46,239 nt of DNA from Nocardioides sp. (GCA_025937085.1 JAICSC010000001.1:1-46239); one strand, 5' to 3'; counted from the stretch's first letter, positions 539-24,438 are shown. Program-made: numbers and translations. The notes: generated from the sequence alone by a model not told the origin.

Positions 539-1184
539 GCCGACCACCCATTCCGGTGCCGGACGAGGCGACAACCACTGCCAACAACGTCCAACAACTA
601 CCCTTGGAACGACTCGTGGGCCCGTCCCCGGGCGACCCATCCACGTCCTTCGTAGCATGCGTGCCGACGCTTTCGGGGGTCTGACAGGCGTGTCTCGGGG
701 GTGCTGAATCAGAAAGTTGAGCGACCGGCAACGGTCAACGAAGACCAGTCGTTCGGATCCTTGAGGTGGGGTGCCAGAGCGTCCGAGCGCTCAATCTCTG
801 TCGCATGCGGTATCGCGCAGCAGCGGTCGCCGTCAGCCACCACGCCTGTCGACGGGCATGCGGGTTCGCAGAGCCCCCCGTCACCGGGAATGTCTCCGGA
901 CGGCCTATACGGACGCGAGCAACCGACTGAGAGCGCCAAGCGGCCCGGTCGCCGTTTGTGGTTCCGCTTGCGGGACGACCGATAGGGACCTTCGCTCATC
1001 GTTGCGTCGGCACGCTAAACGGGCGGCGTCGTCGAAGCCGGTGATCCTGTGACGCAGAAGTTTCCGGTGAGCATGCCTTGCAACGGTGCGAGAGGCGCAG
1101 TGGGCAATGGGATGAGGATGGCCTACGCGCCCCTACTCCAGCGCCGATGCACGTCGTCGAGTGTCTCTGCAGGGCCGGGCCCCA

Positions 1185-1856
1185 TCAGCGTCTACCCAGG
1201 CCGCTGTCACGGGCTCGCACGATGGCTTGCGCCCTGTCCGCGACTTGCAGCTTCATGAAGATGTTGGACACGTGGTTGCGGATGGTCTTCTCCGAGAGGA
1301 CGAGTTCGGTGGCGATGGCGTGGTTGTTGAGACCGCGGGCGACGAGCTCCAGCACCTCGAGTTCGCGGGCGGTGAGCTGCGGGAACTGCGGCGGTTCGTC
1401 GACGACCCGGGCTTCGAGCCCGGCGAAGTAGGCTGTGATGCGCTCGGCGAGGGCCGGCCCGAAGATGACGCCACCGTCGTCGACGGTGTGGATGGCGCGT
1501 TCGATCTCGAGCTGGTCGGCGCCCTTGAGGAGGTAGCCGCGGGCACCGGCCTGCACGGCGGTGAAGACCGACTCGTCGTCGTCGTGCATGGTGAGCACGA
1601 GCACGGCCACCGAAGGGTGGGCAGCTCGGATGGCCCGTGTTGCGCCGACACCGTCCAGCTCAGGCATGTTGAGGTCCATCACGACGACGTCGGGCAGCAG
1701 TTCGGTGCAGCGTGCGACGACCTCGGTGCCGGTCGCGGCCGTGCCGATCACCTCGATTCCCTCGACGGTGCCGAGCAGCAGCTCCAGCCCTTCCCGGTAG
1801 ACGGGGTGATCGTCGGCGATCACCACCCGGACAACCGGCTTCTCTGCGGCGCTCAC
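1185..1856 (-). CDS. NarL/LuxR-family response regulator
   Basis: VVIADDH, DVVVMDLNMP, GARGYLLK receiver motifs; LTARELEVL...LSEKTIRNHVSNI HTH. GTG at 1856 overlaps the kinase stop (GTGA). Confidence 0.95.
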   Translation of the reverse strand: MSAAEKPVVRVVIADDHPVYREGLELLLGTVEGIEVIGTAATGTEVVARCTELLPDVVVMDLNMPELDGVGATRAIRAAHPSVAVLVLTMHDDDESVFTAVQAGARGYLLKGADQLEIERAIHTVDDGGVIFGPALAERITAYFAGLEARVVDEPPQFPQLTARELEVLELVARGLNNHAIATELVLSEKTIRNHVSNIFMKLQVADRAQAIVRARDSGLGRR

Positions 1857-3919
1857 GTCGGCTCCATGGGGAGGCGGGCGGTCACCACGGTTCCCCCGTG
1901 TTCGCCGGTCGCCACGTCGCAGCGGCCCCCCACCTCGGCGGCCCGCTCGCGCATCGAGGACAGGCCGACGCCGTGCCGGCGCTCGCACGGGAGCCCGCGC
2001 CCGTCGTCGGTGATGGTCAGGTCGAGGTGGCTGCCATCGAGGCGTTCGAGTCGTACCTCGCAGCGGCGTGCCGCCGCGTGCCGGGCCACGTTGGTGAGGG
2101 CCTCGCTGACGATCCGGTAGGCGGCGACCTCGACCGCGGCGGGCAGTTCGCCGAGACAGGCGGGTGCTTGGATGACGAGGTCGAACCCGGCGGGTCCCTC
2201 TCCCTGGGTCGCGCCTTGCCTGAAGCGTGAGGCATGCTGCTCGAGGGCGCCGACGAGCCCGACCTGGTCCAGGGCCGGCGGCCGGAGGTCGTGCACGAGC
2301 CGGCGGACGTCGTCCACGGCCTCCCTGGCGTCGGACTTCGCGGCGGCGACCAGGTCGAGCGCCCGGTCGGGGTCGTGTCGCATCAGGTTGCGGATCGCGT
2401 CGAGCTTCAAGGTGAGTCCCGCCAGCTGCGGACCGAGCCCGTCGTGCAGGTCGCGGCGCAACCGGCGCCGCTCCTCCTCGCGAGCCGCGACCAGCTCGGC
2501 GCGTGCTTCCTGCAACGACCGGGTCGTCGAGACCGCCTGCACCACCGCGGTGGCGTGCCGGACGAGGTCGGTGATCAGCATTAGGTCACGATCGGACGGG
2601 TAGCCGCCGCGTGGCAACGCCAGCTGGAGGCTGCCGGCGTGGTCGCCGTGAGCGTCCAGCGGCAGCTGGAGTGCCGACGGCGTAGGGGTGCCGCTCTCGG
2701 CGACGATCGTCTCCTCGCCGGGGACCTCGATCCGCACCCAGGTCGCGCGGAACGCCGTGGACAGGGTCTCGACGGTGGCGCGCAGCACCTCGGCCGGGTC
2801 ATGGCTGGACTCGAGCCGGCGCGACAGCGTGGACACGACTCGGTAGGGGTCGGTCCGATCCCCGCGTAGCCACCGGTTCACCAGGTCCTGCAGCCGGGTG
2901 CGCAGCGGCGCGAACGCCACCGCCACCACCGCGGCCGCGAACCACGGGGCAGCGCCACCGCCGAGCACGACGGTCACGGCCGCGACGACCGCGGCGTAGA
3001 GCCCTACCACCAGCCCGGTGAGCAGCAGGTAGACGAACGAGCGGTTCAGTGCCAGCTGCGCGTCGCCGAGCCGATACCGCAGCACAGCGACAACGATCGT
3101 CCCGGCCAGCACGAGCGTGGCCACAGCCGAGACCACCATCCCCACCGGGGCCGGGGTCAGCCGCGACACGATGACGCCGACGACCATCGCCAAGCCACCG
3201 ACGGCGAACCACCGCAGCTGGGCCGTCGTGGTTTCGTCGGCCCGGCGGTACCGCGCGACGAGGCTGGCCACCGCGACGACGAGCGCGACCAGGTCCAGTA
3301 CCAGCACCGCCGGCAGCACGACATCCCAGACAGCCCCCGGCAGGCCAGTGAGTCCAGTGAGGTCAGGAACCGTTCGGAGGGCTGAGGGCACCTCGCCGGG
3401 AGCGGCGTCGGCGAACACATACTGCAAGGGCACCGTCACCGAGGCCAGGGTGAGCAGCAGGGCGCTCACCACCACCGCTATCGCCACCGGACGCCACCCT
3501 GAGGATGGCAACCGGCCGTCCGGGAAGAGCAGCAGCAGCAGCGGGACGCCTACGTCGCTCAGCGCGGCGAGCCGCATCAGCACCATCCCGGCGGCGGCCA
3601 GCGGCAGATCCCGATGCACGCCGGACGCGTAGACCGCCCAGCCCGCCCCCAGGCTGTTGAGGACCAGCGCGACCGCGGCCGACATCAACATCCAGCCCGC
3701 AGGATGCCGGGGCACTCTCAGCAGCAGCCAGCCGCCCGGGACACCGTAGGCGAGCACCATCACGGTCTGGGCCAGCATCTCCTCACGGAACACTCCGGGC
3801 ACGTCGTGCGAGACGGCGGCGAGCAGGAGCAGCGAGCCAGCCAGCGCCGCCGCGGTCAGACCGACCACGGCGCGACCGGCTCCCTGCAGCCAGCCCTCGT
3901 GCCCTTCAGAGCGGGTCAT
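1853..3919 (-). CDS. Multi-pass membrane sensor histidine kinase (HisKA_3 type)
   Basis: ERRRLRRDLHDGLG H-box, EALTNVARHA N-box, DDGRG and GVGLSSMRERA; long hydrophobic N-terminus. Start placed at MTRSEG (3919). Confidence 0.93.
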   Translation of the reverse strand: MTRSEGHEGWLQGAGRAVVGLTAAALAGSLLLLAAVSHDVPGVFREEMLAQTVMVLAYGVPGGWLLLRVPRHPAGWMLMSAAVALVLNSLGAGWAVYASGVHRDLPLAAAGMVLMRLAALSDVGVPLLLLLFPDGRLPSSGWRPVAIAVVVSALLLTLASVTVPLQYVFADAAPGEVPSALRTVPDLTGLTGLPGAVWDVVLPAVLVLDLVALVVAVASLVARYRRADETTTAQLRWFAVGGLAMVVGVIVSRLTPAPVGMVVSAVATLVLAGTIVVAVLRYRLGDAQLALNRSFVYLLLTGLVVGLYAAVVAAVTVVLGGGAAPWFAAAVVAVAFAPLRTRLQDLVNRWLRGDRTDPYRVVSTLSRRLESSHDPAEVLRATVETLSTAFRATWVRIEVPGEETIVAESGTPTPSALQLPLDAHGDHAGSLQLALPRGGYPSDRDLMLITDLVRHATAVVQAVSTTRSLQEARAELVAAREEERRRLRRDLHDGLGPQLAGLTLKLDAIRNLMRHDPDRALDLVAAAKSDAREAVDDVRRLVHDLRPPALDQVGLVGALEQHASRFRQGATQGEGPAGFDLVIQAPACLGELPAAVEVAAYRIVSEALTNVARHAAARRCEVRLERLDGSHLDLTITDDGRGLPCERRHGVGLSSMRERAAEVGGRCDVATGEHGGTVVTARLPMEPT

Positions 3920-5655: not shown

Positions 5656-6038
5656 CCGCACCGCCACCGACACCACTGCCGGCGGAGGGCGCTCGCCCGG
5701 AAGAGACCGAATGATGCGGAGGCCAGAACGGCAACGGCACCTCGAGAGCGACTCCGACGAGGGTGAAGGACGGCACCTCGTCGAGCGGTGAGGACACCGC
5801 GCGGGTGCTCAGTCTGGGCGAGTCGATCAGGCTGACACGCCCCCGGGGGGCTCTTGCCGGGTGATCACTGTTGCCGATGGGTTGCACGGTCATCACTCAT
5901 CTTCCTTGGCCGGGGATAGAACCCGCGTATGCCCCGCTACGGGATCGATCCGGCACGCTCCGCGAGCCCATCCCCTATCGGGGATCACGGCGCACACCCC
6001 ACTGGGTCACGGTCTCCGACCCTGAGGATGGCGCGACG

Positions 6039-6401
6039 TCATCGACCCAGCTGATGCCTCAGCCTCTGGAGAGCGCAGAACCGGTAGCTCTCGGTCAGCT
6101 GCTCGGCCACCTCGTCCCAGTCGGTGTCGCCGTCGAGCACCATGCCGACAACGGTGGGCGACCACGGCGGCTGGTAGAACGGCGGCCCGGCGTGGACCAT
6201 GGCTAGCAACTCGTCGCCGGAAGACCGGAAGGTCAGCACCGTGGTGGGCTCGGTCACCCCGGTCATCTCGCGGTACGCCGATGTGTAACCCTCCTGGGCG
6301 ACCAGGACGTGGGCGAACGTTCTGCTCCGCACCCGCCACCTCACGCCAGTCCAGGCGTCCTCCTCGTAGGCGTCGGGTAGCGCCAACGCGATAGACGCCA
6401 C
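6039..6401 (-). CDS. MmcQ/YjbR-family protein, copy 1 (original start probably lost)
   Basis: ALALPDAYEEDAWTGVRWRVRSRTFAH...DWDEVAEQLTESYR. The codon equivalent to the copy-2 GTG start is GTT at 6449-6447. Confidence 0.8.
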   Translation of the reverse strand: MASIALALPDAYEEDAWTGVRWRVRSRTFAHVLVAQEGYTSAYREMTGVTEPTTVLTFRSSGDELLAMVHAGPPFYQPPWSPTVVGMVLDGDTDWDEVAEQLTESYRFCALQRLRHQLGR

Positions 6402-6477: not shown

Positions 6478-6762
6478 AGTAGTCGCATGTCATGTGTTAG
6501 TTCGTGCGTCTTCCACCGGCGTACCCCGGCTCAGCGCAGGGTCCAGCCGCGACGCAGTTGTCCCCAACTCGTGATCGACGGAAAGCTCACTCGCCTTCGG
6601 TGCTGCGTGCCGGTGCGGGATGAACTTGCGGCGATCCCATTCGTCGTCCCGTGGCGCGTGCAACCGGACCCACAAGGCGTTCGGCGTACGGGACTGCCAT
6701 GGACACGAGCGTTAGGCGCACGGCGGCCTTGCGCTTGACAGTCATACCGGCCCAGAAGGTCG

Positions 6763-7103: not shown

Positions 7104-7637
7104 TCAGACCGAGGCCCTCGGGGACTCTGCTCGAGCGCTCGCGGCGGCGTCGCGAATCGAGCAGACGATGCTTTGATACCCGGTGCAGCGGCACAGGTTG
7201 CCCGCGATGGCCTCGCGGATCTCGTCGTCGCTCGGGGCGTCGTTCGACTCGATCAGGTTGCGAGCAGCGAACAGGTGGCCCGGTAGGCAGAACCCACACT
7301 GGAAGCCGTCGTTGTTCCAGAAGGCTTCCTGGACGGGAGCCAGTTCGTCAGGGCTGCCGAGGCTCTCGACTGTGTTAACCTCCCCACCGTCGGCGCTCGC
7401 GGCGAGCATCAGGCATGACTTCACGATTTGGCCGTCGAGCTCCAACGTGCAGGCGCCGCAGTCGCCGTTCATGCAACCCACGTGAGTGCCCTTGAGCGCC
7501 AGCTGGTCGCGCACGACCTCGACCAACAGCTGACGGTCGTGGCACTCGACGGAACGGCTTTCACCGTTCACGCGCAAAGTGATGGACCTACCTGGCGTGC
7601 TCTGGGGGCTGAGGTTCGATGCTTGCGAGGTGCTCAT
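7104..7637 (-). CDS. Molybdenum hydroxylase small [2Fe-2S] subunit (CoxS-like)
   Basis: GCMNGDCGAC...C and QCGFC...NLCRCTGY; ATGA overlap with the medium subunit. Confidence 0.95.
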   Translation of the reverse strand: MSTSQASNLSPQSTPGRSITLRVNGESRSVECHDRQLLVEVVRDQLALKGTHVGCMNGDCGACTLELDGQIVKSCLMLAASADGGEVNTVESLGSPDELAPVQEAFWNNDGFQCGFCLPGHLFAARNLIESNDAPSDDEIREAIAGNLCRCTGYQSIVCSIRDAAASARAESPRASV

Positions 7638-8491
7638 TGCTCTCCGTCCTGAATGGTCTCTTCCCATGCTCGGCGCGCAACGACGCCGGCCACCTGCTGG
7701 CGGTAGCTGGCTGGTGCCAACTCGTCGTCCCACGGGTCCTCGAGGTGCTGCTCGATGAGCTCGGCCCACTCACGGTCGCTGACGGTCAGCACGCCGCGCT
7801 CGTCCACGCACTCGGTGACGTCGACGGTGACCGGCGTGGCGCAGACACCACCCAGCGTCACCGTCGCCTGGGTGAGACGGCCGTCGGTATGCGCCGCCAC
7901 AGCGGCTCCAGTGGCGATGGGCCAGCTGCTCTCAGACAGCTTCAACTTGAAGTAACCGGTCCGCGCATCGTTCTTGGGAATGCGGATTTTCGTGACGATC
8001 TCGTCGCCTGCGAGTACAGTCTCGAAGGCATCTCGGAAGAACTGCGCGGCGGTGACCTCCCGCACTCCGTTCGCCCCGTGCAGCGACAGTCGGGCCCCGG
8101 TGGCCACCAGCGCTGCGGGTACATCCGACGACGGGTTTGCATAGCTGGCTGATCCGCCCACCGTCCCCTGGTTGCGGAGCTGGGGGCCACCTGTGATACC
8201 TGCGGCGAGCCTCTTCAGCAGGTTCGCCGGACCGTCGACGTCAGCGGCGAGTACGGCCGAGTATGTTGTCATAGCGCCGAGCTCCACCTCGTCCGCCGTC
8301 GAAGTCACCCCAGAGAGGCCTAGGCGGCGAAGGTCCACGACGTGGTCATACGTCCTTTCACCCCGTCCCATGGCAGGCACGAGCATGGTGCCACCGCCGA
8401 GGACGGCGGTAGTGCCGTCGAGTCCGCCGAGCAGGTCGCCGGCCTCTCGGAGGGTATGGGGCATGTGGTGGGTCAGTGCCGTGCGGATCAT
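7634..8491 (-). CDS. Molybdenum hydroxylase medium FAD-binding subunit (CoxM-like)
   Basis: VLGGGTML and QLRNQGTVGGS...ANPSSD FAD motifs; ATGA overlap with the large subunit. Confidence 0.92.
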   Translation of the reverse strand: MIRTALTHHMPHTLREAGDLLGGLDGTTAVLGGGTMLVPAMGRGERTYDHVVDLRRLGLSGVTSTADEVELGAMTTYSAVLAADVDGPANLLKRLAAGITGGPQLRNQGTVGGSASYANPSSDVPAALVATGARLSLHGANGVREVTAAQFFRDAFETVLAGDEIVTKIRIPKNDARTGYFKLKLSESSWPIATGAAVAAHTDGRLTQATVTLGGVCATPVTVDVTECVDERGVLTVSDREWAELIEQHLEDPWDDELAPASYRQQVAGVVARRAWEETIQDGEQ

Positions 8492-10902
8492 GAGCGTTCT
8501 GCCCTTCGGATTGCGGCGAGCACATTGGGTGCGCTCAGAGGCATCTGGTCTATGACGGCGCCCAGGGGTCGCAACGCGTCGTTGACAGCATTGGCGAGGG
8601 AGGCGATGGCGCCGGCTACGCCGCTCTCGCCGACTCCCTTCATGCCGAGCATCGCGAACGGCGACGGCGTGACCTCGTGCCCGACCTTGATCCATGGCAG
8701 GTCGTTGGCCCGCGGCATCAGGTAGTGCTTGAACGACTTCGTTGCGAGGCGGCCGTCTGGGGCGTACTTCAACTCCTCCCACAACGCTCCACCGATGCCC
8801 ATGGTGATCGCACCGAGGAACTGGCCCTCCACCATTTTCGGGTTGATGATCGTGCCGCAGTCGTGGACGCCTGCATAGTTCTGGAGCTTGACTAATCCGG
8901 TCTCCCGGTCGACCTCGACGGTGGAGACGTGCGCGGAGTATGGGAAAGAGGGGTAGGGGGACGACCGTCCCAGTTCGTCAGGAACGTTGTGCACGTTGGA
9001 CGGCGCGTAGGTACGCGTCGACTCGAGCTGCGCTTGGTCGAGACCATGTACGGCGAGGGTCCGCACGAACACGGCACGTGTCAGTTCCTCGATGCTCAGG
9101 TTGCGGTCGGGCTCGTAGACGACGGATGCGCGGCCGTGCGCAAGACGTACTTGTTCGGGAGTGGTCTCGAGGAGTACGCCGGCGGCGGTCACAAGCGTGG
9201 CCCGCACGTCCCTCGCCGCCAGCAAGGCAGCCGCCCCTCCCACCGTCATTGAGCGACTACTGAAGTTGCCGTAGCCGTAGGGGCACCGATCCGTGTCGCC
9301 CTGGACCACGGTGACGTCGTGCGGCGAGACGCCGAGCTCGGCGGCCACCACCTGGGCGATACCCGTCTCGTTCCCGGTACCGGGGCTGGTTACACCGGTC
9401 AGCACGGTGACCGTGCCGGTCGGGTCCATCCGCACCGTCGAGGTGTCGAAGCCGCGGAGCAGGGTCCCCGAGAAGTCACCGCCCTCCGGCGTGAGCTCGA
9501 AGCCGACACCCACGCCGACGAGCCTGTTCTGGGAGCGCGCCTGCGCCTGCTCCTCACGCAGTTGGTCGTAGCCTCCCAGCTTGAGGACGTGATCCAGCGC
9601 TGCGGCGTACTCGCCACTGTCCAGGTGCTTCATCGACGTCCAGTACGGGAACTCCTCCGGGGGGATGAAGTTGCGCCTGCGGATCTCGGCCGGGTCGAGG
9701 GACAGCTCGGCGGCGACGAGGTCCATGATCCGCTCGTAGGCCAGGGCAGCGGACTCCTTGCCGTAGCTGCGAGCACCGTTCCACGGAGCCTTGTGAGTGA
9801 CGACCGCGGTGGACTCGACGTCGTAGTGCTTGACCCGATAGGGACCCGGCAGCGCCATGCCGGCGATGAACGCCATGCCCCAGCCGCCGCTGGCTCCCAG
9901 TGCGCCGATGTCGGCGATGATCCGGTCGCGCAGCGCGAGGATCTTGCCGTCCTCGTCATAGGCGACCTTGAAGCGGTGGATGAACTCACGAGCGCCCACG
10001 AGCATGCACTCGGCCCGGGTCTCCAGCCACTTCACGGGCGCTCCGACGGCGCGCGAGAGCAGCGCGACGAGCGGTTCCTCCGGGTAACCGTGGAACTTGT
10101 GGCCGAACCCGCCACCAACGCGCGGCGCGATCACACGTATCTGGTTCTCGGGCATGCCGAGGGTCTTGGACAGGTGTGAGCGCAGCGGGTGTGGGTTCTG
10201 GGCCGACGCGTGCAGTGTCAGACGGCCGTCGGTGCCCCAGGAGGCGATGTAGCCACGAGTCTCCAGGGGGGCGGTCTGGTATCGCTGGATCCGGAGCTCG
10301 CCCTCGAGGGTGTGCTTCGCGGAGTCGATGATCGGTCCCGCGTTGCCCTCGACGAAGGGAAGCCGGATCATGGCGTTGTCCTCCCAGGTGTCGAACACCT
10401 TAGGGGCACCCTGCTCGAGTGCCTTCTCGGCGTCGATCACGAAGGGCAGCGGCTCCCAGTCGACCTCGATGAGCGCGACCGCCGCTTCCGCATCGTTGAG
10501 CGTGACGCCCACCACGGCTGCCACCGGTTCGCCTGCGTAGATCACCTCGTCGACGGCCAGTGGCCTGAAGTCGGCGGTGCGTCCACCGACCAGTGCAGGA
10601 TCGAAGTAGTGGGGAATCGGGCTCGTTTGGTCCTTGGCCTGGGCGCCGGTGAGCACGAAGCGCACTCCACTCGCTGCCTCGGCCGCGGACGTGTCGATGC
10701 CACGGATCCGCGCGTGGGCGTAGGGGCTGCGGAGGATCGCCGCGTGCAGCATCCCGGGCAGGACGGTGTCGTCGAGGTAGCCCCCGCGACCGGTAAGCAT
10801 CAGGTCTCCGTCCTTGCGGCGGATCTGCTCCAGCTCGGGTCGTACCGACTCCGGCCGAGGGTCGTCGGTGGCGACGAAGCGAGGGGTGATGGTCTCAGTC
10901 AT
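8488..10902 (-). CDS. Xanthine oxidase-family molybdopterin-binding large subunit
   Basis: LRSPYAHA, VGGGFGHK, VVQGDTD, DCGTIINP, KGVGESG (catalytic Glu). Confidence 0.95.
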   Translation of the reverse strand: MTETITPRFVATDDPRPESVRPELEQIRRKDGDLMLTGRGGYLDDTVLPGMLHAAILRSPYAHARIRGIDTSAAEAASGVRFVLTGAQAKDQTSPIPHYFDPALVGGRTADFRPLAVDEVIYAGEPVAAVVGVTLNDAEAAVALIEVDWEPLPFVIDAEKALEQGAPKVFDTWEDNAMIRLPFVEGNAGPIIDSAKHTLEGELRIQRYQTAPLETRGYIASWGTDGRLTLHASAQNPHPLRSHLSKTLGMPENQIRVIAPRVGGGFGHKFHGYPEEPLVALLSRAVGAPVKWLETRAECMLVGAREFIHRFKVAYDEDGKILALRDRIIADIGALGASGGWGMAFIAGMALPGPYRVKHYDVESTAVVTHKAPWNGARSYGKESAALAYERIMDLVAAELSLDPAEIRRRNFIPPEEFPYWTSMKHLDSGEYAAALDHVLKLGGYDQLREEQAQARSQNRLVGVGVGFELTPEGGDFSGTLLRGFDTSTVRMDPTGTVTVLTGVTSPGTGNETGIAQVVAAELGVSPHDVTVVQGDTDRCPYGYGNFSSRSMTVGGAAALLAARDVRATLVTAAGVLLETTPEQVRLAHGRASVVYEPDRNLSIEELTRAVFVRTLAVHGLDQAQLESTRTYAPSNVHNVPDELGRSSPYPSFPYSAHVSTVEVDRETGLVKLQNYAGVHDCGTIINPKMVEGQFLGAITMGIGGALWEELKYAPDGRLATKSFKHYLMPRANDLPWIKVGHEVTPSPFAMLGMKGVGESGVAGAIASLANAVNDALRPLGAVIDQMPLSAPNVLAAIRRAERS

Positions 10903-10994
10903 GCGACCTGCCTTCTGGCGACAACATTGTGAGGAACGTAACTCCCCGTCGGCGGCTGTAACGATGGTTGCCTGGACAGTCTCCTGGGGCCTCG

Positions 10995-11012
10995 CATGTG
11001 GGTCCACACATG
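10995..11012. promoter_or_regulatory. Palindrome upstream of the large subunit, candidate operator for the adjacent regulator
   Basis: CATGTG-N6-CACATG, ~90 bp upstream of the ATG. Confidence 0.4.
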
Positions 11013-11033
11013 GAGACTCGGTGACTCCGCGCG

Positions 11034-12953
11034 CTAGGTGCGCCGGTCCACGCCGACACGCCCGATGTCGTGCGCCATCAGGGCCGCGTTGAGTTGCAAG
11101 AGGGACTCGGGGCGCGCCAGTTGGAGGCCGAGCAGGGACTCGATGCGCTTCAGCCGCAGCGTCACGGTGTTGGGGTGCACGAACAGTGCCTTGGCTGTCC
11201 TGGCTGTGCTCAGGTCGTGGGCCAGGTAGGACCGGAGCGTCTCGACCAGGTTCGTCTTGCGGGCGTCGTCGTAGTCGCGCAGCGGGCCGAGAGTCTCATC
11301 AGCGAACCGGCCAAGCACCGACAGATCATCGAGCTGCAGCAACAAGCCGTAGAACCCGAGGCCTGGCAGGGTGATCGTGCGGTCGCGGTACCCTTGGAGA
11401 CGCGCGAGCTCGAGGGCCCCTCGCTGCCTCCGAAACGCCTGTGCGTACCCGGTTAGGTCCTGACACGGCTCACCGACGGCCACACTGATCGTTGATCGGG
11501 ATCCGCCTTTGGAGACGTGCTTCCGGATGGACTCGGCCACCTCCTCGGACGTGAGGTCTCCGGCCTTGCGCGGTAACGGCCAGAGCATGACGACGTACTC
11601 AGCGCTGATGGTCGCGAGCGCGGGTGACGCCGTGGACTGGGCGGCCGTCCGGACCAGGCCGAGGATCCGGCGCTGCTCGCTGCTGGTGGAGGAGCGGGCG
11701 TCTCCGTCCTCGGGATCGGCACGTATCACCAGGACGGTGTGGGGTTGTGACAGGTCGTGCCCCAGGTGGCGGGCCCGCGGAATCAGGGTGACGCTGTCCG
11801 AGGGGTTGTCCGCGAGCAGTTCAGCGAGCAGATCTCCGCGCAAGGCCCACTCGACGTCGAGGGCAGTGCGTTCGCGGATCATCTGAAGGGCGCTCACGAC
11901 GACGGCGTGCTCGATCGCACGTCGCTGGAGGGCGCCTAGGTCGTGGGCCCGACCAGGCATCCAGAAACGCGCCACCAGTTCCTCGTCGAGGAACACCGGC
12001 ACTGAGATCCGCGGCAGGTATGGCCTTGCGCCTGGCCAAGGTGGAACCTCGATGAGACCACCCTCGGTGTCGAGGGCCGGCTCCAGGTCGGTCCGCTCGG
12101 ATGCGGGGGGCGCGTCGACCGTGGCGCCCTGGTGTACCGCCATGGCGAGGACGCCGAGGGCCGCGTCCTCGACCAGCACTGGCCGGTCGAGCAGCCCGGC
12201 CAAGACGCTGACCAAGGCCTGGACGCCTCCGGAACCCAGCGCCACTGCTGTCAGCCGCTGGTGGATCTCCTCAGCCTGCTGAAGGAGACGCGCCTGCGCC
12301 CGGAGAGAGGAGTTGAGGGTCTGCAGCTGGCCGATCGTGGCTTGTTCGTGCTCACGCAGCCTCGCGGTCTCGATGGCCGTGCCGGCCAAGTTGGCCAACG
12401 CCCCGAGGAGCAGCACCTCGTCCTGCTCGAAATGATGCGGCTTGGACCGGTAGCCGTTCAAGGTGCCCACGGCGCGGCCGTTGACCATCAGAGGTACGGC
12501 GATCAACGAGCCGATGCCCTGCTTCTTCGCGATCCTGCCCCAGGGCCGGAAGCTTGGGTCGCGCAGCACGTCCTCGACCGCGACGGGTAGGCCGGTCAGG
12601 AAGGCGCGGCTGGACGGCGTCTCCCCAGAGGGCTGCGGGCCGAGCCGGAAGGAGAGGGAGCTGCTGACTTGGGACTCGTACTCGGCCGAGAGGCCGTAGG
12701 AGCCGCTGATCTCCAGCATGCCCTCCGACTCGTTGGCCAGGAGCACTGCGCAGAAATCGTAGCCCATCAGCTCACCGCCGCTGCGAGCCAGAAGGTCGAG
12801 GAGCGCCGACAAGGGCTGGTGCAGTGTGACGGCGCCGGCGATGTCGGTGACGGCACGCAACCACGTGCGCAGCTCTTGGTGGACGGTCGCCGGGTCGGCT
12901 GCCGGAAGCATCCCCCTTGGCTTCGCATCGTGCTGGTGAGACTCACCGGGCAT
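11034..12953 (-). CDS. GAF-domain PucR/CdaR-family transcriptional regulator
   Basis: N-terminal GAF (SLIAVPLMVNGRAVGTL); C-terminal LVETLRSYL...TAKALFVHPNTVTLRLKRIE HTH. Start approximate. Confidence 0.9.
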   Translation of the reverse strand: MPGESHQHDAKPRGMLPAADPATVHQELRTWLRAVTDIAGAVTLHQPLSALLDLLARSGGELMGYDFCAVLLANESEGMLEISGSYGLSAEYESQVSSSLSFRLGPQPSGETPSSRAFLTGLPVAVEDVLRDPSFRPWGRIAKKQGIGSLIAVPLMVNGRAVGTLNGYRSKPHHFEQDEVLLLGALANLAGTAIETARLREHEQATIGQLQTLNSSLRAQARLLQQAEEIHQRLTAVALGSGGVQALVSVLAGLLDRPVLVEDAALGVLAMAVHQGATVDAPPASERTDLEPALDTEGGLIEVPPWPGARPYLPRISVPVFLDEELVARFWMPGRAHDLGALQRRAIEHAVVVSALQMIRERTALDVEWALRGDLLAELLADNPSDSVTLIPRARHLGHDLSQPHTVLVIRADPEDGDARSSTSSEQRRILGLVRTAAQSTASPALATISAEYVVMLWPLPRKAGDLTSEEVAESIRKHVSKGGSRSTISVAVGEPCQDLTGYAQAFRRQRGALELARLQGYRDRTITLPGLGFYGLLLQLDDLSVLGRFADETLGPLRDYDDARKTNLVETLRSYLAHDLSTARTAKALFVHPNTVTLRLKRIESLLGLQLARPESLLQLNAALMAHDIGRVGVDRRT

Positions 12954-13033
12954 CACGTTCGCGACTCTATCCGGACCTCGGATCACGCCCTGGGGTCGGT
13001 TCTTCTCGAGGCCGTCTGGCCGACGAGCGGGTT

Positions 13034-13603
13034 TCAGGCGTCGGGTGTGCCGACCCGGAACACACGCATCATCTGAGCCAGGGTGCGGTAGTAACCGACC
13101 AGCACGATGAGCTCGAGCACCTGCTCGGCCCCTACGGCCTCCTGGAGTACGTCGAACGTCGGGTCGTCGACGTCCCCGTCGTCGAGCAGGGTCTCGCACA
13201 TCCTGACGAGGCTCGCTTCGACCGGGTCCTGGGAGCTGAACGTGCCCGCCCGTAGGCTGTCCATCTCCGCTGGACTGATGCCGGCCTCTCGGCCGGGCCC
13301 CGCATGCGCGTGCCACTCGAAGTCGCTCCGGGTCGCCGCCGCGACCAGGAGAATCACCAGCTCACGCGTCCGGTCCCCGAGGCCGGTCCGGAAGCGCAGC
13401 GCGCTTCCGAGGTCCTGCAGCGGCAGGCCGACCTTCGGCGCGTGCAGCATCAGTCCGAACGGTCCGACCAGGCTCCCGTCGTCGTCCACCAGTGGGAACG
13501 AGGACTGGCCACGACCCCGGGCTCCCTCGGTGATCAGCCGGAAGAGCACCTGCTGCTCCTGGTCTAGGTCTGACTGACCTAGACGAGGCAGGCGTTCGTT
13601 CAT
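13034..13603 (-). CDS. Carboxymuconolactone decarboxylase/AhpD-like protein
   Basis: GPFGLMLHAP, RTRELVILLVA...FEWHAH, ELIVLVGYY. Confidence 0.85.
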   Translation of the reverse strand: MNERLPRLGQSDLDQEQQVLFRLITEGARGRGQSSFPLVDDDGSLVGPFGLMLHAPKVGLPLQDLGSALRFRTGLGDRTRELVILLVAAATRSDFEWHAHAGPGREAGISPAEMDSLRAGTFSSQDPVEASLVRMCETLLDDGDVDDPTFDVLQEAVGAEQVLELIVLVGYYRTLAQMMRVFRVGTPDA

Positions 13604-13626
13604 GATCGACCCGACCCGACCGCGAC

Positions 13627-14556
13627 TTAGCGAAGCGGGATGACGTCGCTGCCGTGACGGATCGTGGTCGAGATGAAGCCGAGCTCCTCGACCTCGAGGC
13701 GGACCTCGTCACCGACCTTCAAGAACGGGTACTGGTCCTCGCCGTGGACGAGCGAGAGCTCGAGGATGCAGCCGGTGCCGACCGTTCCGCTGCCGATAAT
13801 GTCGCCGGGTACCAACAGGGTGCCGCGCGAGGCATAGGCCAGCATCTGGCCGAACGACCAGTGTAGGTCGCCGAGGTTGCCCTCGCTGTAGGGGCGTCCG
13901 TTCACAGAGGCGGTCATCTTGAGGTCATAGGCCGTTGCGCCCCGACGCCCACTCAGTTCGTCAGGCGTGACCAGCCAGGGACCGTAGCTGGTAGCGGTGT
14001 CCTTGCCCTTGACCGGCCCCATGGTCTGTTTCATCTCACGGGCCTGCAGGTCGCGAGCGCTCCAGTCAGACATCAGCATGTACCCGGCGATGTGCTCTTC
14101 GGCCTCCTCAGGGTGGAGGTCACGGCCGGCCCTGCCGACGACCGCGGCCACTTCCAGCTCGAAGTCGAAGCGGGTCGAGCCCGGCGCCATCTCCACATCC
14201 GCGCGGTGTCCGCGTGTGGCTTGGGGGTTCTGGAAGTAGAACACCGGGAGCTCGTACCAGTCCGGGTTGATCGGTTGGTCCAGGGCCTTCGCGCAGGCAA
14301 GCACGTGGGACTCGAACGCGTAGAAGTCACGGACGGAGGGCGGGACCGGTACGGGCGCGAGCACCTCGGCGGTCTCGAGCTCGAGCACGTCGATCGGGTC
14401 GCTCTTGGCTCGCTCGGCCGCCGCAGCCATGGCCTCGGCGTCGTCGAGCAGCTCGATGAGCTGCGTCGTGTCCCGCACCCCGTGGAGCTTGTTGTCGTCG
14501 ACCAGGGCAACGTGGGTGGTGCTGTCGGAGGGCGAGACATAGGTTGTCCAGCGCAT
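13627..14556 (-). CDS. Fumarylacetoacetate hydrolase-family protein
   Basis: RDFYAFESH, DFELEVAAVVG, DWSARDLQ, KGKD, GDIIGSGT. Confidence 0.93.
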   Translation of the reverse strand: MRWTTYVSPSDSTTHVALVDDNKLHGVRDTTQLIELLDDAEAMAAAAERAKSDPIDVLELETAEVLAPVPVPPSVRDFYAFESHVLACAKALDQPINPDWYELPVFYFQNPQATRGHRADVEMAPGSTRFDFELEVAAVVGRAGRDLHPEEAEEHIAGYMLMSDWSARDLQAREMKQTMGPVKGKDTATSYGPWLVTPDELSGRRGATAYDLKMTASVNGRPYSEGNLGDLHWSFGQMLAYASRGTLLVPGDIIGSGTVGTGCILELSLVHGEDQYPFLKVGDEVRLEVEELGFISTTIRHGSDVIPLR

Positions 14557-14590
14557 GGATGGTCCTTTCGATTGCGAGCAGGCAGGGCGT

Positions 14591-15532
14591 TCAGGCGTAA
14601 CAGGTGAGCCGCTGGCCGCCGTTGTAGGCGACCATGTCGGTGAGGGCGGCGCGGGTGTCGATCCGCGCGCCCCGCTCGGCGCCGCCGAGCTCGGCATACG
14701 CACGGTGCAGGTTGCCAACGATCCGCTCGGGGTCGAGCAGGCCGGCGAACCGACCCAGATCGGTCTCGAGCGCCGCCTCGAGGGGGGACACCCCCGACTT
14801 GAAGCCGTCCTCCGCGACCGACATCACGAAGTTGAGATAGTCGAGGACATCGTCGATCAGCTCGGGACCGCAGACGTCCCCGTGTCCGGGCACGATCGTG
14901 GTCGCGGGTAGCGGCTTCACGACATTCTCCAGCACCTCGATGGCCCCTGCGACGGATCCCATAAGAAGGAACGGCGTACCGCCGTTGAAGAGCAGGTCGC
15001 CTACGAACAGCGTGCTCCGATCGGGGACCCAGACGAGGGAGTCGTTCGTCGTGTGGGCGGGCTGGCCCACGTAGCTTAGCTCGATCGGCAGGTCGTCCAC
15101 CCACAGCGTCACGCCGGACTCATAGGTCACAAAGGGGGGTGCCAGCTCCACCGGGCCCCATTCGACGTCCTGGAAGATCGGAGCGTCGAACGGCAGACCA
15201 TAGTGCAGCACGTCCTCGCGGGTTCGTTCATGTCCGAGGATCGTGGCGTTCTTGAAGAGAAAGTTCCCGAACGTGTGGTCGCCGTGGTGGTGGGTGTTTA
15301 CCAGCGTGCGCACGGGCGCCTTGGTCACCGACGAGATCGTCTCGAGGTAGCGCTTGGTGCGGGCCGCCGTCGAGCAGCCGTCGATGCTGATGACGCCCTT
15401 CTTGCCGACGAAGAAGCCAGTGTTGTTGATCCACCAGCTCCCATCGGGTTGCAAGTAGGCGTAGATATCTTCGCTGACCTCAACCAGTCTCGGGTCGCCG
15501 AGCTCGGGAAGGTCTTCGGTCGAGGAACTCAT
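14591..15532 (-). CDS. Metallo-beta-lactamase-fold hydrolase/cyclase-like protein
   Basis: NTHHHGDH, AHTTND, GDLLF, VPGHG. Confidence 0.92.
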   Translation of the reverse strand: MSSSTEDLPELGDPRLVEVSEDIYAYLQPDGSWWINNTGFFVGKKGVISIDGCSTAARTKRYLETISSVTKAPVRTLVNTHHHGDHTFGNFLFKNATILGHERTREDVLHYGLPFDAPIFQDVEWGPVELAPPFVTYESGVTLWVDDLPIELSYVGQPAHTTNDSLVWVPDRSTLFVGDLLFNGGTPFLLMGSVAGAIEVLENVVKPLPATTIVPGHGDVCGPELIDDVLDYLNFVMSVAEDGFKSGVSPLEAALETDLGRFAGLLDPERIVGNLHRAYAELGGAERGARIDTRAALTDMVAYNGGQRLTCYA

Positions 15533-15800
15533 GGCAGGACGCTAAGTCTTCGGTCGGCCCTGTCGCGATGGTCCCAGCCACAGGCTTCCGCGCATCCCGC
15601 TGTGGAGTGCCATACCGCGGACATGTGTCAGGAGCGAGTCGAACGACGGACTTGTACCCACACGCTCCCCCAATTCCCAGGGTCAGATATGCGCACCTGT
15701 CGGCGGCATCCGTGAAACGCTCCAGTTGCCCGTCTGGGGATCCGACGTATCGGCTACCTCGCGCTGAGGTTCCCCCCGGACCGTAGAGGCATCTCCCTGT

Positions 15801-16489
15801 GGCACGCTCCGCGTGCCGATCCCGCTGTGGAGGAGTAGAGCGCACGATCCCACTCGGTGACCGTGTCTACCACCAGGACCGTGCAACGTCATCGATCCAG
15901 CCGGTGCCTCAGCTTCTGCGGAGCGCAGAACCGGTAGCTCTCGGTCACCAGCTCGGCCACCTCATCCCAGTTGGTGTCGTCGTCGAGCACCATGCCGACG
16001 ATGGTGGGCGACCACGGCGGCTGGTAGAACGGCGGCCCCGACGTGGGCCAAGGCCAAGAGCTCGTCGCCGGATGACCGGAAAGTCAGCACCGTGGTTGGC
16101 TCTCTCACTCCGGTCGCGTCGCGGTACGCCGAGGCGTAACCCTCCTGGACGACCAGGACGTGAGCAAAGGTCTTGTTCCGGACTCGCCACCTCACGCCGG
16201 TCCAGGCGTCCTCCTCGTAGGCGTCGGGCAGAGCCAACGCGGCGGATGCCACCCGAGCCACGACATCGCCGGAGGGCTCGATGCGCAGCGTCCTGAACAC
16301 TCTCCGAGTCTGTCAGCGAAAGCCCGACAAGTAGTTCGCCGGGTCCGATCAGATCCCGCGGGCGCCTCCGCCGGCCCAAACCGCCTTCATCGCTGGGCCA
16401 CCCGCGACGGACTTGCCACCGACTCGTGATCCAAGAGAGGCAACTCCACTCCGGTGGCGCGTCCCGTTGCGGGGATCGGCATGTGGAGT
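15801..16489. repeat. MmcQ/YjbR unit, copy 2 (homologous to 5952-6634)
   Basis: Same orientation as copy 1; bounded by inverted motif copies at 15806-15832 (+) and 16461-16489 (-). Confidence 0.85.
15889..16300 (-). pseudogene. MmcQ/YjbR-family gene, copy 2, +1 frameshift
   Basis: 412 nt against 411 nt for copy 1 (6039-6449). Extra base near 16036-16040 (ggcggccccg vs ggcggcccg); the downstream frame still matches copy 1. Confidence 0.85.
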
Positions 16490-16963: not shown

Positions 16964-17220
16964 CGGGCAAGGCTAGGACACTTCTGCGGGCTCTGATCCC
17001 TGTTCGACGTGAATCAGGTGGTCGCCACAAACACGCAAATCTTGACAGCACGGAGACATAACCTCACCACGGTGGATCGCCGCTATCAAAGCAATGGGGC
17101 GCCGAACGACGGGCGGTGAGCGAAGAGCCGAATCCCTCACCGCTTGAGCATCCGTCTGCGGCGACTCGCCGGCACCGCGTGGGTGAACGACTGATGGCCA
17201 CGTGGTCATCGATCGGGTAA

Positions 17221-18699: not shown

Positions 18700-18878
18700 G
18701 TCGTCCTCCTCCTCCCACCACCCGCGGCGCCACGGCCCTCCCAGCATCGCGCCCCTGGCAATGTGCGTCAATCAGCTGCCAGGACTCCGTCACCGCCTGC
18801 GTTCCGAAAGCCGAACCCCGGGTTCGTGCGGTGGTCGCAACACCCACCTGATTGCTGGATTCTTGTGAGGTGTTGACG

Positions 18879-20036
18879 ATGCCTGTGCGTTTCTCCAACC
18901 AGCTTGTCGCCGAGCTGTATCAGCCGTTCTGGGCGGCGTGGCAGGGTGGTGAGTTCTTGACCGACGCGGCTGCGGTTGCCGGTACGTATCGCCACCGCGG
19001 CCTGGCCTGGCTGAGCCAGGCCGGCGGGGTGCGGCCGAGGCGGGGCCGGGACCTGCAGGGACGCTGCTTGTCGTTCGCGGAGCGTGAAGAGATCGCGCTG
19101 GGTCGTGCGGCGGGTGAGTCGATGCGGGCGATCGCCGCGCGTCTGGGCCGCAGCCCCTCGACGATCTCGCGGGAGCTGGGCCGCAACGCCGATCGTGCCG
19201 GCCGGTATCGGGCGAGCGCGGCGCAGGTGCTGGCCTATCAGCGGGCCTGCCGTCCCAAGCCGGCGAAGCTGGTGATCAACCCCGTGTTGCGCCAGCGGGT
19301 GCAAGCCGATCTGGCGAAGCGGTACTCCCCGGAGCAGATCGTTGGCCGGCTGCGCAAGGATTTCCCCGACGAGCCGGAGATGTGGGTGTCGACCGAGATC
19401 TATCAGTCGCTGTACGTTCAGTCGCGCGGGGCGCTGCGCCGCGAGCTGACGAAGTGTCTGCGCACCGGACGGGCGCTGCGGGTCCCGAACCGGCAGGGCG
19501 CCCACCGCAAGAACCGGGTGCTGCCCGACATGGTCACATCAGCGAACGGCCCGCCGAGGCCGTCGACCGCGCGGTGCCCGGGCATCGGGAGGGCGATCTG
19601 ATCCTCGGGAAGGGCAACGCTTCGGCGATCGGACGCTGGTCGAGCGCTCCACCGGCTACACCCTGCTCGTCCCGCTGCGCGAGGGGTTCAAGGCCGAGCA
19701 AGTCGCCCCCGCGCTGGCCGCGAAGATCAAGACGCTGCCCGAGGCGCTGCGCCGGTCACTGACCTGGGACCAGGGTGTGGAGATGCGCGACTGGAACAGG
19801 TCAAGATGGCCGCCGACATCGCCATCTTCTTCTGCGACACACTCCACTTGGCAGCGCGCCACCAACGAGAACACCAACGGCCCGCTACGACAGTACGCAC
19901 CCCTTGCGGCACCGACTTGTCGGTGCACTCCGCCGCCGACCTGGACTGGGTCGCCGCCGAGCTCAACGACCGGCCCCGCAAACGCCTCAAGTACGCCAAG
20001 CCGAGCGAGCAGATCGGTCCCTTGCTGCTCGGCTGA
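18879..20036 (+). pseudogene. IS30-family transposase with multiple frameshifts
   Basis: LSFAEREEI...RSPSTISREL HTH, SPEQI, PGH(R)EGDL, SLTWDQGVEM, WQRATNENTNG and LNDRPRKRL are spread over different frames. Confidence 0.92.
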
Positions 20037-20224
20037 CCGTTCTACCGGGACGCTTCCTCGCAGCAGCCCGTACTCTGGTCACCGCGCAGGAGAAGTCAAG
20101 GTGCAGCCCCCACAGCCGCTTGCGGCGAGGAGGAACGACCTTGACACCGACAAGCGGTGACCCATCATCGACAGCGAGGAGCGCCCAGGAGCCCCCGAAG
20201 GTAGTGAGAAACCAGAGCAAGTGC

Positions 20225-20435
20225 TCAGTCGTCGTCCTCGCCGAAGAGCAGATGCCCGTCATCCCCGCCGAGCAGGAACCTGACCCGGCCCAGATCCGCG
20301 CACAGCTGCGCCACGTCGTAGCGCTCGCTGCCCACGAACCGAGCCAACGCCTCGCTATCAGGGCCGCCGAGCCAGTCTCGAACAAAGCCGAGCAGCTCAA
20401 CGTGAAGCGCCGTCGCTGGCCTCCAGCCCCCTCAC
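20225..20435 (-). pseudogene. Small frameshifted hypothetical gene inside the IS30 ends
   Basis: Frame ELLGFVRDWLGGPDSEALARFVGSERYDVAQLCADLGRVRFLLGGDDGHLLFGEDDD* lacks its own start; the putative N-terminus (VRGLEASDGA) is in another frame. Confidence 0.45.
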
Positions 20436-20668
20436 CAGCCGCCACCTCCCCAGTATCCACCCGGAGCGCCCGCAACTAGGCTGAAACCACTCGCCGACCA
20501 ACCGCTCGACGAAAGATCGTGTGTTGCGAGCACCGCCAGAACCCGCCGATCCCGCTGCGGGACGTGTCGAGCCCCTCGGGCCGAGCGGATGCCTGCCGGC
20601 CCTCGCTGTGCGAGAGCTGATCTCGCCAAGGTCGCCACGCCGCCTTCGTCAACCTGATGGCAACTGGT

Positions 20669-21394: not shown

Positions 21395-21555
21395 GGCAGG
21401 GCCTTTCGTCCAGTGACCGGGCCATGAGGAGCTCGATCGAGGTGATGCGGTCGTCCTGCCCGTCCGGTGCGCCGTTCCGGAGGACACCGCGTTGATGAGG
21501 CGCGTGAGGGGTGAGGCCGCTGGCCGCGGCGGGATGCTGTGAGACGGGTGGGCGG

Positions 21556-22659: not shown

Positions 22660-22660
22660 G

Positions 22661-23260
22661 TCAGGTCCGTTCCGGTTGGAGACGCAGGAAGTCGATGTAG
22701 CGCCGGGCCTCGTCCTGCTGCTCGGGCGTGAGCTCGGGGCCGAGGTAGGTCAGCGTGTGGGCGGTGGCGGGGCCGCCGTCATGGGGATCCACGGTGTAGG
22801 GACGCGAGTCCAGACCAGTGACGTCACGCAGGATGCGGTCAAGGTCTTGCAGGACCAGTCGCTCCCGCAGCGTGTCGGGGACGAAGCGGGGCCTGAGCTC
22901 GTGCATGGCGGCGAGGAACGGCCCTGTTGCCTGCCGCAGCGCCGCCGTCCCGTCCGGAGCGAGGGCGACCAGAAGGGACCTGCCGTCGTTCGGGTTCGGC
23001 TGCCGCTCGAGGTGTCCCCGCTGATCGACACGGCCGAGATGGGCGGAAACGGTGGTGGTCGGCCAGCCGGTCCAACGGTGGATCTGCGTGGGCGTGGCGG
23101 GGCCGAACGCCCCGAGCAGCGAGTACAGCCCGAAGTCGTTCCCAGACAGGCCGCTGCCGGCCAGGACGTCGTCCAGGTAGCCGACGGAAAGCCCGGACAG
23201 GAGCCACACGTCGAACAGGAGAGACATGGGGCCGTCGCTGCGGGGCGCCGCGCTGGACAT
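22661..23260 (-). CDS. MarR-family regulator with C-terminal extension
   Basis: TTVSAHLGRVDQRGHLERQPNPNDGRSLLVAL winged helix; stop 1 nt before the hydrolase start. Confidence 0.85.
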   Translation of the reverse strand: MSSAAPRSDGPMSLLFDVWLLSGLSVGYLDDVLAGSGLSGNDFGLYSLLGAFGPATPTQIHRWTGWPTTTVSAHLGRVDQRGHLERQPNPNDGRSLLVALAPDGTAALRQATGPFLAAMHELRPRFVPDTLRERLVLQDLDRILRDVTGLDSRPYTVDPHDGGPATAHTLTYLGPELTPEQQDEARRYIDFLRLQPERT

Positions 23261-23534
23261 GCAAGCAACATACTTCCTTCTCGCATCAAAGTCATGCACT
23301 CTCGCAGTAGGACGCCGAGCGACTAGACCAGGCCGCGACCTCATCGACGTCGAGCAGGAAGCCGGAGACCGATCCCTTGTGGGACGCGGGCAGCCCGAAC
23401 CTGCCAAGCTGCGGGTGCCTCGACCGCGCCCGGGTCACCGTTCTTGCTCAGGGACGGCCATGGGGGGTCTGACCGTCACGTAGGCGCCGGGCGTACTGCC
23501 GAGGTGGCGGACTTCTTGGCCACGTTGTCGTACA

Positions 23535-24152
23535 CTAGGTACTGCCTGAGGCGCTGAGCTTCAGGAAGTAGAGCCCGAGACCCGGCCGGACGACCGTGGC
23601 GCTCGGCTCAGCGCATTTCTGCACGTCGGTAGTGCCGGCGATTACCGAGCTGATGCGTGCGCGCCAGTGACCGCCCTTGGCGTAGCACCAAGCGATGGCA
23701 TCAGGCAGAGCGAGCAGCGGTTCCGTGGCCGCCCGTTCGTGGCGGTAGTGCAGTTGGTCGGCGCAGCCGGTATCGCGGGTCACCTCGATCAGTTGCTGGC
23801 GATCGGTGCTGAGCAAGGTCTCGTCGAGCTCGAGTGTGAACTGCACTTGACCTTGGTCGGCCAGATCTCTAACCAGCTGCTCCAGGCACGCGCGTCGTCG
23901 CTGGAGGTCGGTGCGGTATCGGCGCCCGGCGCTGTAGACCGTAGCACTGAGGGGCAGGGACGCGATGGTGTCGGCCAATGCTCGCTTTCGAGCGTCGCGT
24001 TCCGCCTTCATGTGCAGCCTCCGCTGGCCTGGGAGCATGTGGTCATTGAGCTTGCGACGGATCGTTCCAAGGTCGCCAGGAACGACGACCGCGGCAACCA
24101 TGATGTAGTCACGTGCCTTGGTCTCGTCCACGAAGACATGAAGCGTCGACAC
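23535..24152 (-). CDS. DUF3800-like (RNase H-fold) protein
   Basis: N-terminal HVFVDET, RRLHMK, C-terminal EPLLALPDAIAWC: the acidic DE...D pattern of DUF3800-like proteins. Start at GTG 24152. Confidence 0.7.
   Translation of the reverse strand: MSTLHVFVDETKARDYIMVAAVVVPGDLGTIRRKLNDHMLPGQRRLHMKAERDARKRALADTIASLPLSATVYSAGRRYRTDLQRRRACLEQLVRDLADQGQVQFTLELDETLLSTDRQQLIEVTRDTGCADQLHYRHERAATEPLLALPDAIAWCYAKGGHWRARISSVIAGTTDVQKCAEPSATVVRPGLGLYFLKLSASGST
23540..23618 (-). ncRNA. Structured RNA at the 3' end of the DUF3800-like gene (DUF3800-RNA-like)
   Basis: Minus strand: GAGCCGAG/CTCGGGCTC stem enclosing a CGGTC-GTCC-GGCCG hairpin, then a CCTGA/TCAGG hairpin. GCGCTGAGC is perfectly complementary to GCTCAGCGC. 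Confidence 0.55.
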
Positions 24153-24438
24153 GAGACCATCTTCGCGGCTGCGGTGACAGGCTCCACGTAGCCCTTGCAT
24201 CGGGCGCGGCGTGAGCGCCTGCCGTGTGCAACCTGATGCGAGGACGACTTGCCACAGCACCAACGCCACAACAGTTCAAGGGCTGAGGGTGGACTGCGGA
24301 CAGGGGTGGTGGCGGGCGGCGCGATAGCTGGAGCCTCGACGGCGATCCTGCTCGGACGGGGCCGGGCACAGCGTGAGCGTGGCCGAGCAGGTGCCGAAGC
24401 AGCCTCGAGTGGGAGACCACCGGACGCGCCGGGCCCAG

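Follow-up and report, generated by a model that had tools for sequence, protein, structure and literature searches.

Integrons, which are defined by the integrase IntI and by attI and attC sites (the latter an imperfect hairpin framed by the core boxes RYYYAAC ... GTTRRRY), and multi-site serine invertases such as Gin, Hin and the Bacteroides Mpi, in which a small serine recombinase acts on several short sites, are two ways of moving DNA segments between short recombination sites. The present work concerns a family of short repeats in the left 24.5 kb of a 46,239-nt stretch of Nocardioides sp. DNA (GCA_025937085.1, JAICSC010000001.1:1-46239; hereafter the window, i.e., the whole stretch that was analysed), corresponding to contig C407 of the G000 assembly (3.49 Mb, 86% complete). 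These 28-bp dyads are sites at which gene modules have been exchanged at a central dinucleotide, and are probably solo copies of the crossover site, res site I, used by a small serine resolvase of actinobacteria.

The closest described systems are those of the Tn3 family. Serine resolvases act at res site I, which has the geometry of a 28-bp dyad with a 2-bp crossover (PMC2602789, PMC7157771), and the res of Tn3 and gamma-delta combines this site I with accessory sites II and III (PMC2602789). During module exchange between Tn3-family elements (PMC7157771), and in the "resolvase shuffling" described for CinH-RS2 (PMC9501444, citing Kholodii 2001), the AT of site I is the point where homology is lost. 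In the systems presented in these two papers, toxin-antitoxin (TA) genes adjoin the resolvase and res, the resolvases are proposed to shuffle cargo, and one res per transposon swaps its arms. All but the last of these features are found in the islands considered here, which also share with Tn3/gamma-delta res the 28-bp dyad, the central dinucleotide and a homologous small serine recombinase. The island sites differ in mostly lacking canonical sites II/III and in their number: instead of one res per element, many copies are found per island, in tandem runs with a 28-29-bp period and without transposase or terminal repeats (no Tn3 transposase was found among the ORFs, or open reading frames, that were scanned). 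Instead of one-res transposons, cassettes from a single gene to 10 kb are seen, bordered by as many as about 20 bare sites in 14 kb and located in chromosomal islands and a linear plasmid, and where Tn3 res serves resolution, the junctions described below also record insertion, duplication and inversion.

More distant systems share other traits. Acinetobacter pdif/dif modules also rely on short 28-bp sites in mixed orientation between unrelated cargo, with the enzyme supplied in trans (PMC12907356), but pdif has the 11-6-11 structure of XerC/XerD sites, which is absent here, where a 2-bp crossover and a likely serine enzyme are seen instead. The likeness to integrons lies in arrays of cassettes whose cargo is small accessory genes, TA pairs and genes of resistance type; unlike in integrons, there is no common orientation or fixed attI, and attC core pairs occur in 0 of 555 site clusters. 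As for an integron integrase, a nearby tyrosine recombinase reached 30 bits on TIGR02249 (cut-off 265), and none was found in the window. Finally, beyond the local inversion seen with Gin, Hin and Mpi, the junctions here show modules gained, lost and duplicated between genomes. Exchange at res site I is already known, and the arrays of solo sites appear to be the new part: no published description of such arrays in actinobacteria was found in a search covering mostly non-subscription literature, main texts rather than supplements, nor did this literature yield a serine-recombinase cassette element of Psychrobacter, which may be described elsewhere.

The unit of the family is a dyad of the form CC-N7-(G/C)AT(C/G)-N7-GG, whose symmetry axis is the central AT (or TT/AA), and which is often repeated in tandem every 28-29 bp, with runs of up to nine copies and in one case 19. 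Scored with a three-class half-site model trained without G000, positions 1-24,550 of the window hold six sites of at least 14 bits, against a Markov null mean of 0.12 (maximum 2 in 100), and the 21.7 kb of the core half hold none; the other 3.45 Mb of the assembly contain 18 such sites, and 23 of the 26 matches of at least 13 bits found there lie inside ORFs. Half-sites scoring about 11.8 bits also arise by chance in the core half. The half-site classes pair in all six combinations, like-with-like palindromes included. Sites are intergenic and clustered in islands, 20 out of 322 falling inside ORFs although 75% of the DNA is coding. Among 300 genomes of the genus, a 20-nt core pattern gave 129 matches in 58 genomes versus 12 control matches (counted by hand), so that about a dozen single matches may be due to chance; in these tallies, as in those given below for the resolvase and TrwC, the unpublished genome G178 is one row only. 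A GTDB scan with a 21-nt pattern returned 129 loci, from which 18 were removed by hand as lying outside the target taxa or resembling chance matches. The named records sharing the motif are mostly Nocardioides and related actinobacteria, and the site was not found in PLSDB plasmids by blastn with a 56-nt query.

The position of the exchange was read from shared blocks (at least 95% identity over at least 300 bp) in 213 fetched sequences totalling 2.07 Mb, some genomes possibly appearing twice in this set, under a handle and as a named record. Block ends fall on a site in 31 of 62 cases, versus 1.5 expected. Over 36 unique junction pairs, the left halves of the sites agree at 81-100% per position, whereas between the right halves identity is at the baseline of random right halves. 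The number of matching bases past the central dinucleotide is 0 in seven pairs, 1 in 13, 2 in 11 and 3-5 in five; the dinucleotide itself is common to 33 of the 36 pairs, and homology stops within 0-1 base of it in 20. Such a drop of identity directly after the central dinucleotide is the signature expected of a serine recombinase. One clean insertion is also recorded: where genome G294 has a single site, G101 has two hybrid sites separated by 1,175 bp, and the sequence on either side is conserved. Tandem duplications, one inverted duplication, and gain or loss of the 28-bp unit are seen as well. The site centre is where near-identical modules (0.4-10 kb) found in different genomes end, and those that are 97-100% identical end at bare sites. 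Modules with a site at either end contain DUF4440, a bacA/crcB/LysR block, or the resolvase together with TA genes.

Which enzyme would act on these sites? The protein family most commonly found near them (9 of 49 loci) is a small serine recombinase of about 204 residues (PF00239 plus HTH_7), with Gin (E 8e-31) and gamma-delta (E 5e-23) as best matches in a structure database, and a weak match to Mpi, below the cut-off, in NCBIfam. Its catalytic motif GYARCS reads as intact in the sequences of 115 of 120 homologs. The resolvase was found in 37 of the 300 genus genomes, and the 20-nt pattern occurs in 22 of these 37 versus 36 of the 263 others (odds ratio 9.2, kin not being independent). When the relaxase TrwC is taken as a control for island load, the pattern is present in 45 of 195 TrwC-positive and 13 of 105 TrwC-negative genomes (23% versus 12%; hand tally). 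In a phylum-wide draw the protein was recovered in at least 5 of 300 genomes, ten candidates being scored in each, and there was one match among phage records. Loci fetched by means of the resolvase protein had sites in 22 of 22 cases, compared with 1/19 and 1/25 of control loci; the position weight matrix (PWM) used for this test was built from plasmid res sites and from sites of plasmid pROB01, the latter picked by the half-site model.

Homologs of the resolvase on plasmids (72-77% identity) carry the same dyad 121-142 bp upstream of the start codon, scored in five of seven and alignable in the other two, followed in most of them by conserved boxes resembling sites II and III; in pAG1, the homolog adjoins a Tn3 transposase. 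The dyad of the islands is the same as the res site I that precedes the genes of Tn3-type resolvase homologs carried by actinobacterial plasmids. The resolvases associated with arrays form a clade of 25 rows (support 100/98) without II/III-like boxes upstream, around which site density reaches 8.1 per 10 kb, versus 1.15 near the homologs with canonical res, and the gene of this derived clade is itself bounded by sites and is therefore a cassette. The canonical II/III pattern is present within 130 bp of 17 out of 555 site clusters, and its sole match in the window is inside a gene. At L204-L232, the resolvase gene is preceded, about 115 bp before its start, by a conserved GC-rich leader with a short palindrome, and is followed, just after its stop, by a conserved 27-bp dyad, 46-57 bp from the next site.

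The original prediction, a description of this stretch made from the sequence alone, had proposed that the repeats may be recombination sites through which cargo accumulates. The junctions support that role, with modules gained, lost, duplicated and inverted at the repeats, and cross-genome breakpoints, by which it was to be checked, do fall inside the motif. A tyrosine recombinase or an HUH enzyme had been suggested as the enzyme, and here a crossover of 2 bp, together with the resemblance of the site to res site I, favours a small serine resolvase instead.

A second array has been found on the Rhodococcus opacus B4 plasmid pROB01 (NC_012520.1, about 502,500-516,700, i.e., L291 16579-30690), where 20 sites lie between small hypothetical genes in 14 kb around a resolvase gene (null 1.2), none of them in an annotated coding sequence though 71% of the region is coding. 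Site pairs are spaced 36-69 bp apart, and a duplicated cassette of 1,008 bp (99.3% identity) starts at a site centre. The pROB01 resolvase is sister to the array clade, with modest support (87/90). Another island (L042 1800-19600, in G008:C9) contains three resolvase copies and many sites, with cargo that includes at least five PemK and PIN toxin-antitoxin pairs and a rifampin ADP-ribosyltransferase gene.

In the window, the island with its unrelated cargo is delimited on the left by the contig end, which falls within a decayed relaxase gene, and on the right by a broken tRNA gene. The features along it are as follows, sites being listed without strand.

67..375, minus strand: N-terminal part of a decayed TrwC/MOBF relaxase (PF08751, E 4e-18; stops in the upstream frame)
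949..976: full 28-bp crossover site, TT/AA centre 962-963 (19.8 bits)
5931..5958: partial site, AT centre 5944-5945, left edge of YjbR cassette copy 1 (left half 11.0 bits)
5957..5984: full site, AT centre 5970-5971, in tandem with the preceding one (30.1 bits)
6039..6401, minus strand: YjbR-family gene, cassette copy 1 (PF04237, E 1.7e-9; identity with copy 2, 83-90%)
6607..6634: full site, AT centre 6620-6621, right edge of YjbR cassette copy 1 (17.7 bits)
6667..6694: full site, TT/AA centre 6680-6681 (19.0 bits)
7104..15532, minus strand: cargo block with a three-subunit molybdopterin dehydrogenase, a PucR/GAF regulator, a carboxymuconolactone decarboxylase (CMD) family protein, a fumarylacetoacetate (FAA) hydrolase and a metallo-beta-lactamase-fold protein (Pfam)
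15778..15805: weak site, AT centre 15791-15792, left edge of YjbR copy 2 (8.7 bits; 11.2 bits by a second PWM; alignment)
15806..15833: full site, AT centre 15819-15820 (25.7 bits)
15875..16324, minus strand: YjbR-family gene region, cassette copy 2 (repeat families D1/D2; PF04237, E 1e-4)
16461..16489: site on AT centre 16475-16476, its left half longer by one base, right edge of YjbR copy 2 (right half 9.6 bits)
17137..17164: full site, AT centre 17150-17151 (15.3 bits)
18801..18814: left half-site adjoining an insertion sequence (14.7 bits)
18819..20545, plus strand: degraded insertion sequence with HTH_38 (inverted repeat I10, PF13936, end sequences)
20549..20563: AT centre and right half-site adjoining the insertion sequence (12.7 bits)
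23359..23386: weak site, AT centre 23372-23373 (8.6 bits)
24526..24540: half-site, AT centre 24539-24540, beside the broken tRNA that borders the island (weak, 11.8 bits)
24563..24603, minus strand: 5' 41 nt only of tRNA-Arg(CCT), which breaks off past the anticodon; border of the island

The relaxase remnant likely marks the island as a mobilizable element, and the site at 949..976, which is the best match of a PWM built without Nocardioides sites, sits between this remnant and a two-component module. The homology of the two YjbR cassettes spans from centre 5944/15791 to centre 6620/16475, with none outside: the site at 16461..16489 aligns with the one centred on 6620, where homology between the copies stops. 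The sites at 15778..15805 and 15806..15833 are tandem partners with a 28-bp period, the cargo block at 7104..15532 is flanked by the sites centred on 6680 and 15791, and the site at 23359..23386 lies beyond a DUF2306/beta-lactamase-family/MarR module (Pfam). The insertion sequence, which we take to be of the IS30 family, has inverted ends of about 25 bp and a 2-bp flanking repeat; lying between a left and a right half-site, it is placed as if inserted into a site. At the border, the half-site centred on 24539 is 23 bp past the tRNA break. The tRNA-Arg(CCT) fragment is identical over 41/41 nt to a full-length tRNA sequence in L296; its 3' half was searched in the G000 assembly and not found, and ARAGORN found no tRNA in the window. 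Sites were present in 0 of 19 loci with YjbR homologs in other genomes, and the cargo at 20450-24560 has relatives of only 66-68% identity, in 3 of 200 genomes; because of these site-less homologs and distant relatives, no cross-genome breakpoint was mapped for the modules of the window itself. Metagenomes from soil and from plants, produced in several studies, contain the island (1-24750) in nearly identical form, and long public-run contigs show few single-base differences from it only.

This map revises the repeat family as first described: the family is real once re-registered on the AT centre, and its register and list of copies were right in part only. The 13 sequences listed in the original prediction are all present where it placed them; rescored, four are full sites, four partial, two marginal (15586 and 21521) and three unsupported (799, 841 and 24191). 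The full ones are 950-976, 5957-5984, 6607-6634 and 15806-15832. As for the partial ones, a site does occur at 5918-5945, with its real centre at 5944 and hence off-register, at 16461-16489, with one extra base in one half, and at 23358-23385, with only 8.6 bits, whereas 20538-20563 includes a right half-site preceded by a GAACCC that belongs to the insertion-sequence end. The list had missed 6667-6694, 17137-17164, 15778-15805 and the half-sites centred on 18814 and 24539. The symmetry had been placed in a right-hand dyad rather than on the central AT, and a PWM built from the seven copies called clear strongly recovers two of the seven in a leave-one-out test, with genome-wide counts equal to those of simulation (70 versus 80 at 13 bits or more). 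A pattern near the first consensus did no better than its reversed control, with matches in 21 of 101 genomes. The absence of a convincing copy from the core half, in contrast, was confirmed.

Other repeats of the window are of different kinds. A gene-less 79-bp element at 6764-6842, with TG...CA inverted ends, is a possible miniature inverted-repeat transposable element (MITE), and its ends resemble those of the IS21 family. In the core half, 32-bp tandem repeats form two mutually inverted blocks (36556-36677 and 38281-38376) of a different family, similar to repetitive extragenic palindromic (REP) sequences, and an 18-bp tandem repeat at 36385-36492 is probably coding.

Several observations weigh against solo res sites recombined by the resolvase described above. 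In the 86%-complete G000, searches by family (PF00239), by protein and by tblastn found no resolvase, which also bears out the statement of the original prediction that the window has no cognate recombinase. PF00239 is absent from G286 and from G026 (100% complete), although the latter has nine pattern matches and site-bounded duplications that are 99.3-99.5% identical; from such recent duplications, the enzyme would be either transient or lost, or another protein would be responsible. More widely, matching the query protein at E 1e-40 failed in 36 of the 58 motif-positive genomes. Shared-block ends fall off sites in 28 of 62 cases, some of them at insertion-sequence ends, and at weak sites only in 3 of 62. 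The loci were picked around motif or resolvase matches, one module is shared by several pairs and kin are not independent, so that the junction counts overstate the number of events. The conserved leader and 27-bp dyad around the resolvase gene at L204-L232 could act as accessory sites of a non-canonical kind, or could belong to an RNA element. A leucine at the position of gamma-delta E124 was considered as an activating feature and rejected, the homologs with canonical res being also without glutamate. Lastly, the contigs of eight public runs contain no joint at any site centre, which fits a static array and brings no support; a joint from 974 to 15798 in a public run was not counted, its short side having only 24 letters and being off-centre.

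How far, then, can the arrays be explained without a dedicated system? They might be relics of res left by exchanges between Tn3-family transposons and plasmids, on which canonical resolvases act in trans at a low rate. The equivalence of the site with res site I of Tn3-type homologs is as expected under such a by-product, transposon exchange at the AT of res site I is published (PMC7157771; for CinH, PMC9501444), many copies are degenerate, and arrays persist in enzyme-less genomes. This explanation nevertheless appears unlikely to us in view of the just 17 of 555 clusters with canonical II/III within 130 bp: modules of 97-100% identity end at bare sites, and a decay of sites II/III after the event is therefore improbable. 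The extra sites are, moreover, sparse near canonical-res homologs and dense near the derived clade.

The other candidates do not involve a resolvase. Sites of a tyrosine recombinase with an 11-6-11 geometry, used by host XerC/D as in pdif or by an island integrase, would agree with the 28-bp length, the intergenic position and the mixed orientation, and tyrosine recombinases exist in all five motif-rich genomes tested, including resolvase-less ones; this is highly improbable given that in 20 of 36 junctions homology is lost no more than 0-1 base from the central dinucleotide, short of a shared 6-bp centre, that half-sites pair in all six ways, like with like included, unlike fixed XerC/XerD arms, and that the site matches res site I. 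We regard as more doubtful still the joining of hairpins resembling an origin of transfer (oriT/nic) through strand transfer by an HUH relaxase such as TrwC: exchange is symmetric around the dyad centre on both sides, many sites have no hairpin linker, and TrwC, present in 195 of 300 genomes, is weakly linked to the motif and was not found in the motif-rich G263 and G286, despite the TrwC remnant in the window, a site about 500 bp upstream of TrwC in L041, and a tandem linker able to form a short hairpin. There is scarcely any greater chance that the copies, although intergenic, palindromic and tandem, are a REP/MITE-like repeat or a transcription-factor operator in which homologous recombination would produce the breakpoints. 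The motif is not spread over the whole genome and has no Rfam match in the window, no true motif-less empty site appeared in 448 flank comparisons, Y1/RAYT transposases were found in 0 of 5 genomes, and breakpoints fall at one fixed dinucleotide between dissimilar halves.

Under exchange between solo copies of res site I, the resolvase would cut and rejoin any two solo sites, the main rule of compatibility being a matching central dinucleotide (AT with AT, AA with AA), and the palindromic AT would permit both orientations. Its clade would have lost the upstream accessory sites II/III and would recombine bare copies of site I with relaxed topology. Circles excised between two sites could re-integrate at another, building cassette arrays in islands and mobilizable elements, and the resolvase gene, being itself a cassette, could also leave; its departure would account for a static, decaying and enzyme-less array such as that of the window. 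Activated mutants of Tn3 resolvase recombine bare site I and yield resolution, inversion and intermolecular products (PMC2602789), and it is to these mutants that the derived resolvase on bare sites can be likened. We see about equal grounds for and against the broader view that this is a dedicated third cassette system of actinobacteria, in which a self-mobile, "activated" Tn3-derived resolvase, freed of accessory-site control, would use the central dinucleotide as a compatibility code in islands, mobilizable elements and linear plasmids.

If true, a wild resolvase would be doing what Tn3 resolvase does only with engineered activating mutations, so that accessory-site control would become directly testable, and a 204-residue recombinase with tolerant 28-bp sites could serve as a tool for actinobacterial genetics. 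Small serine recombinases have been postulated to mobilise defence genes in PMC13552941, the main text of which contains neither "res site" nor "recombination site"; exchange between solo sites would offer a mechanism for this reported link with mobile defence cargo. It would also explain how the mosaic cargo of soil-actinobacterial islands, with its catabolic blocks, TA pairs and genes of stress or resistance type (arr, bacA and crcB among them), may be assembled.

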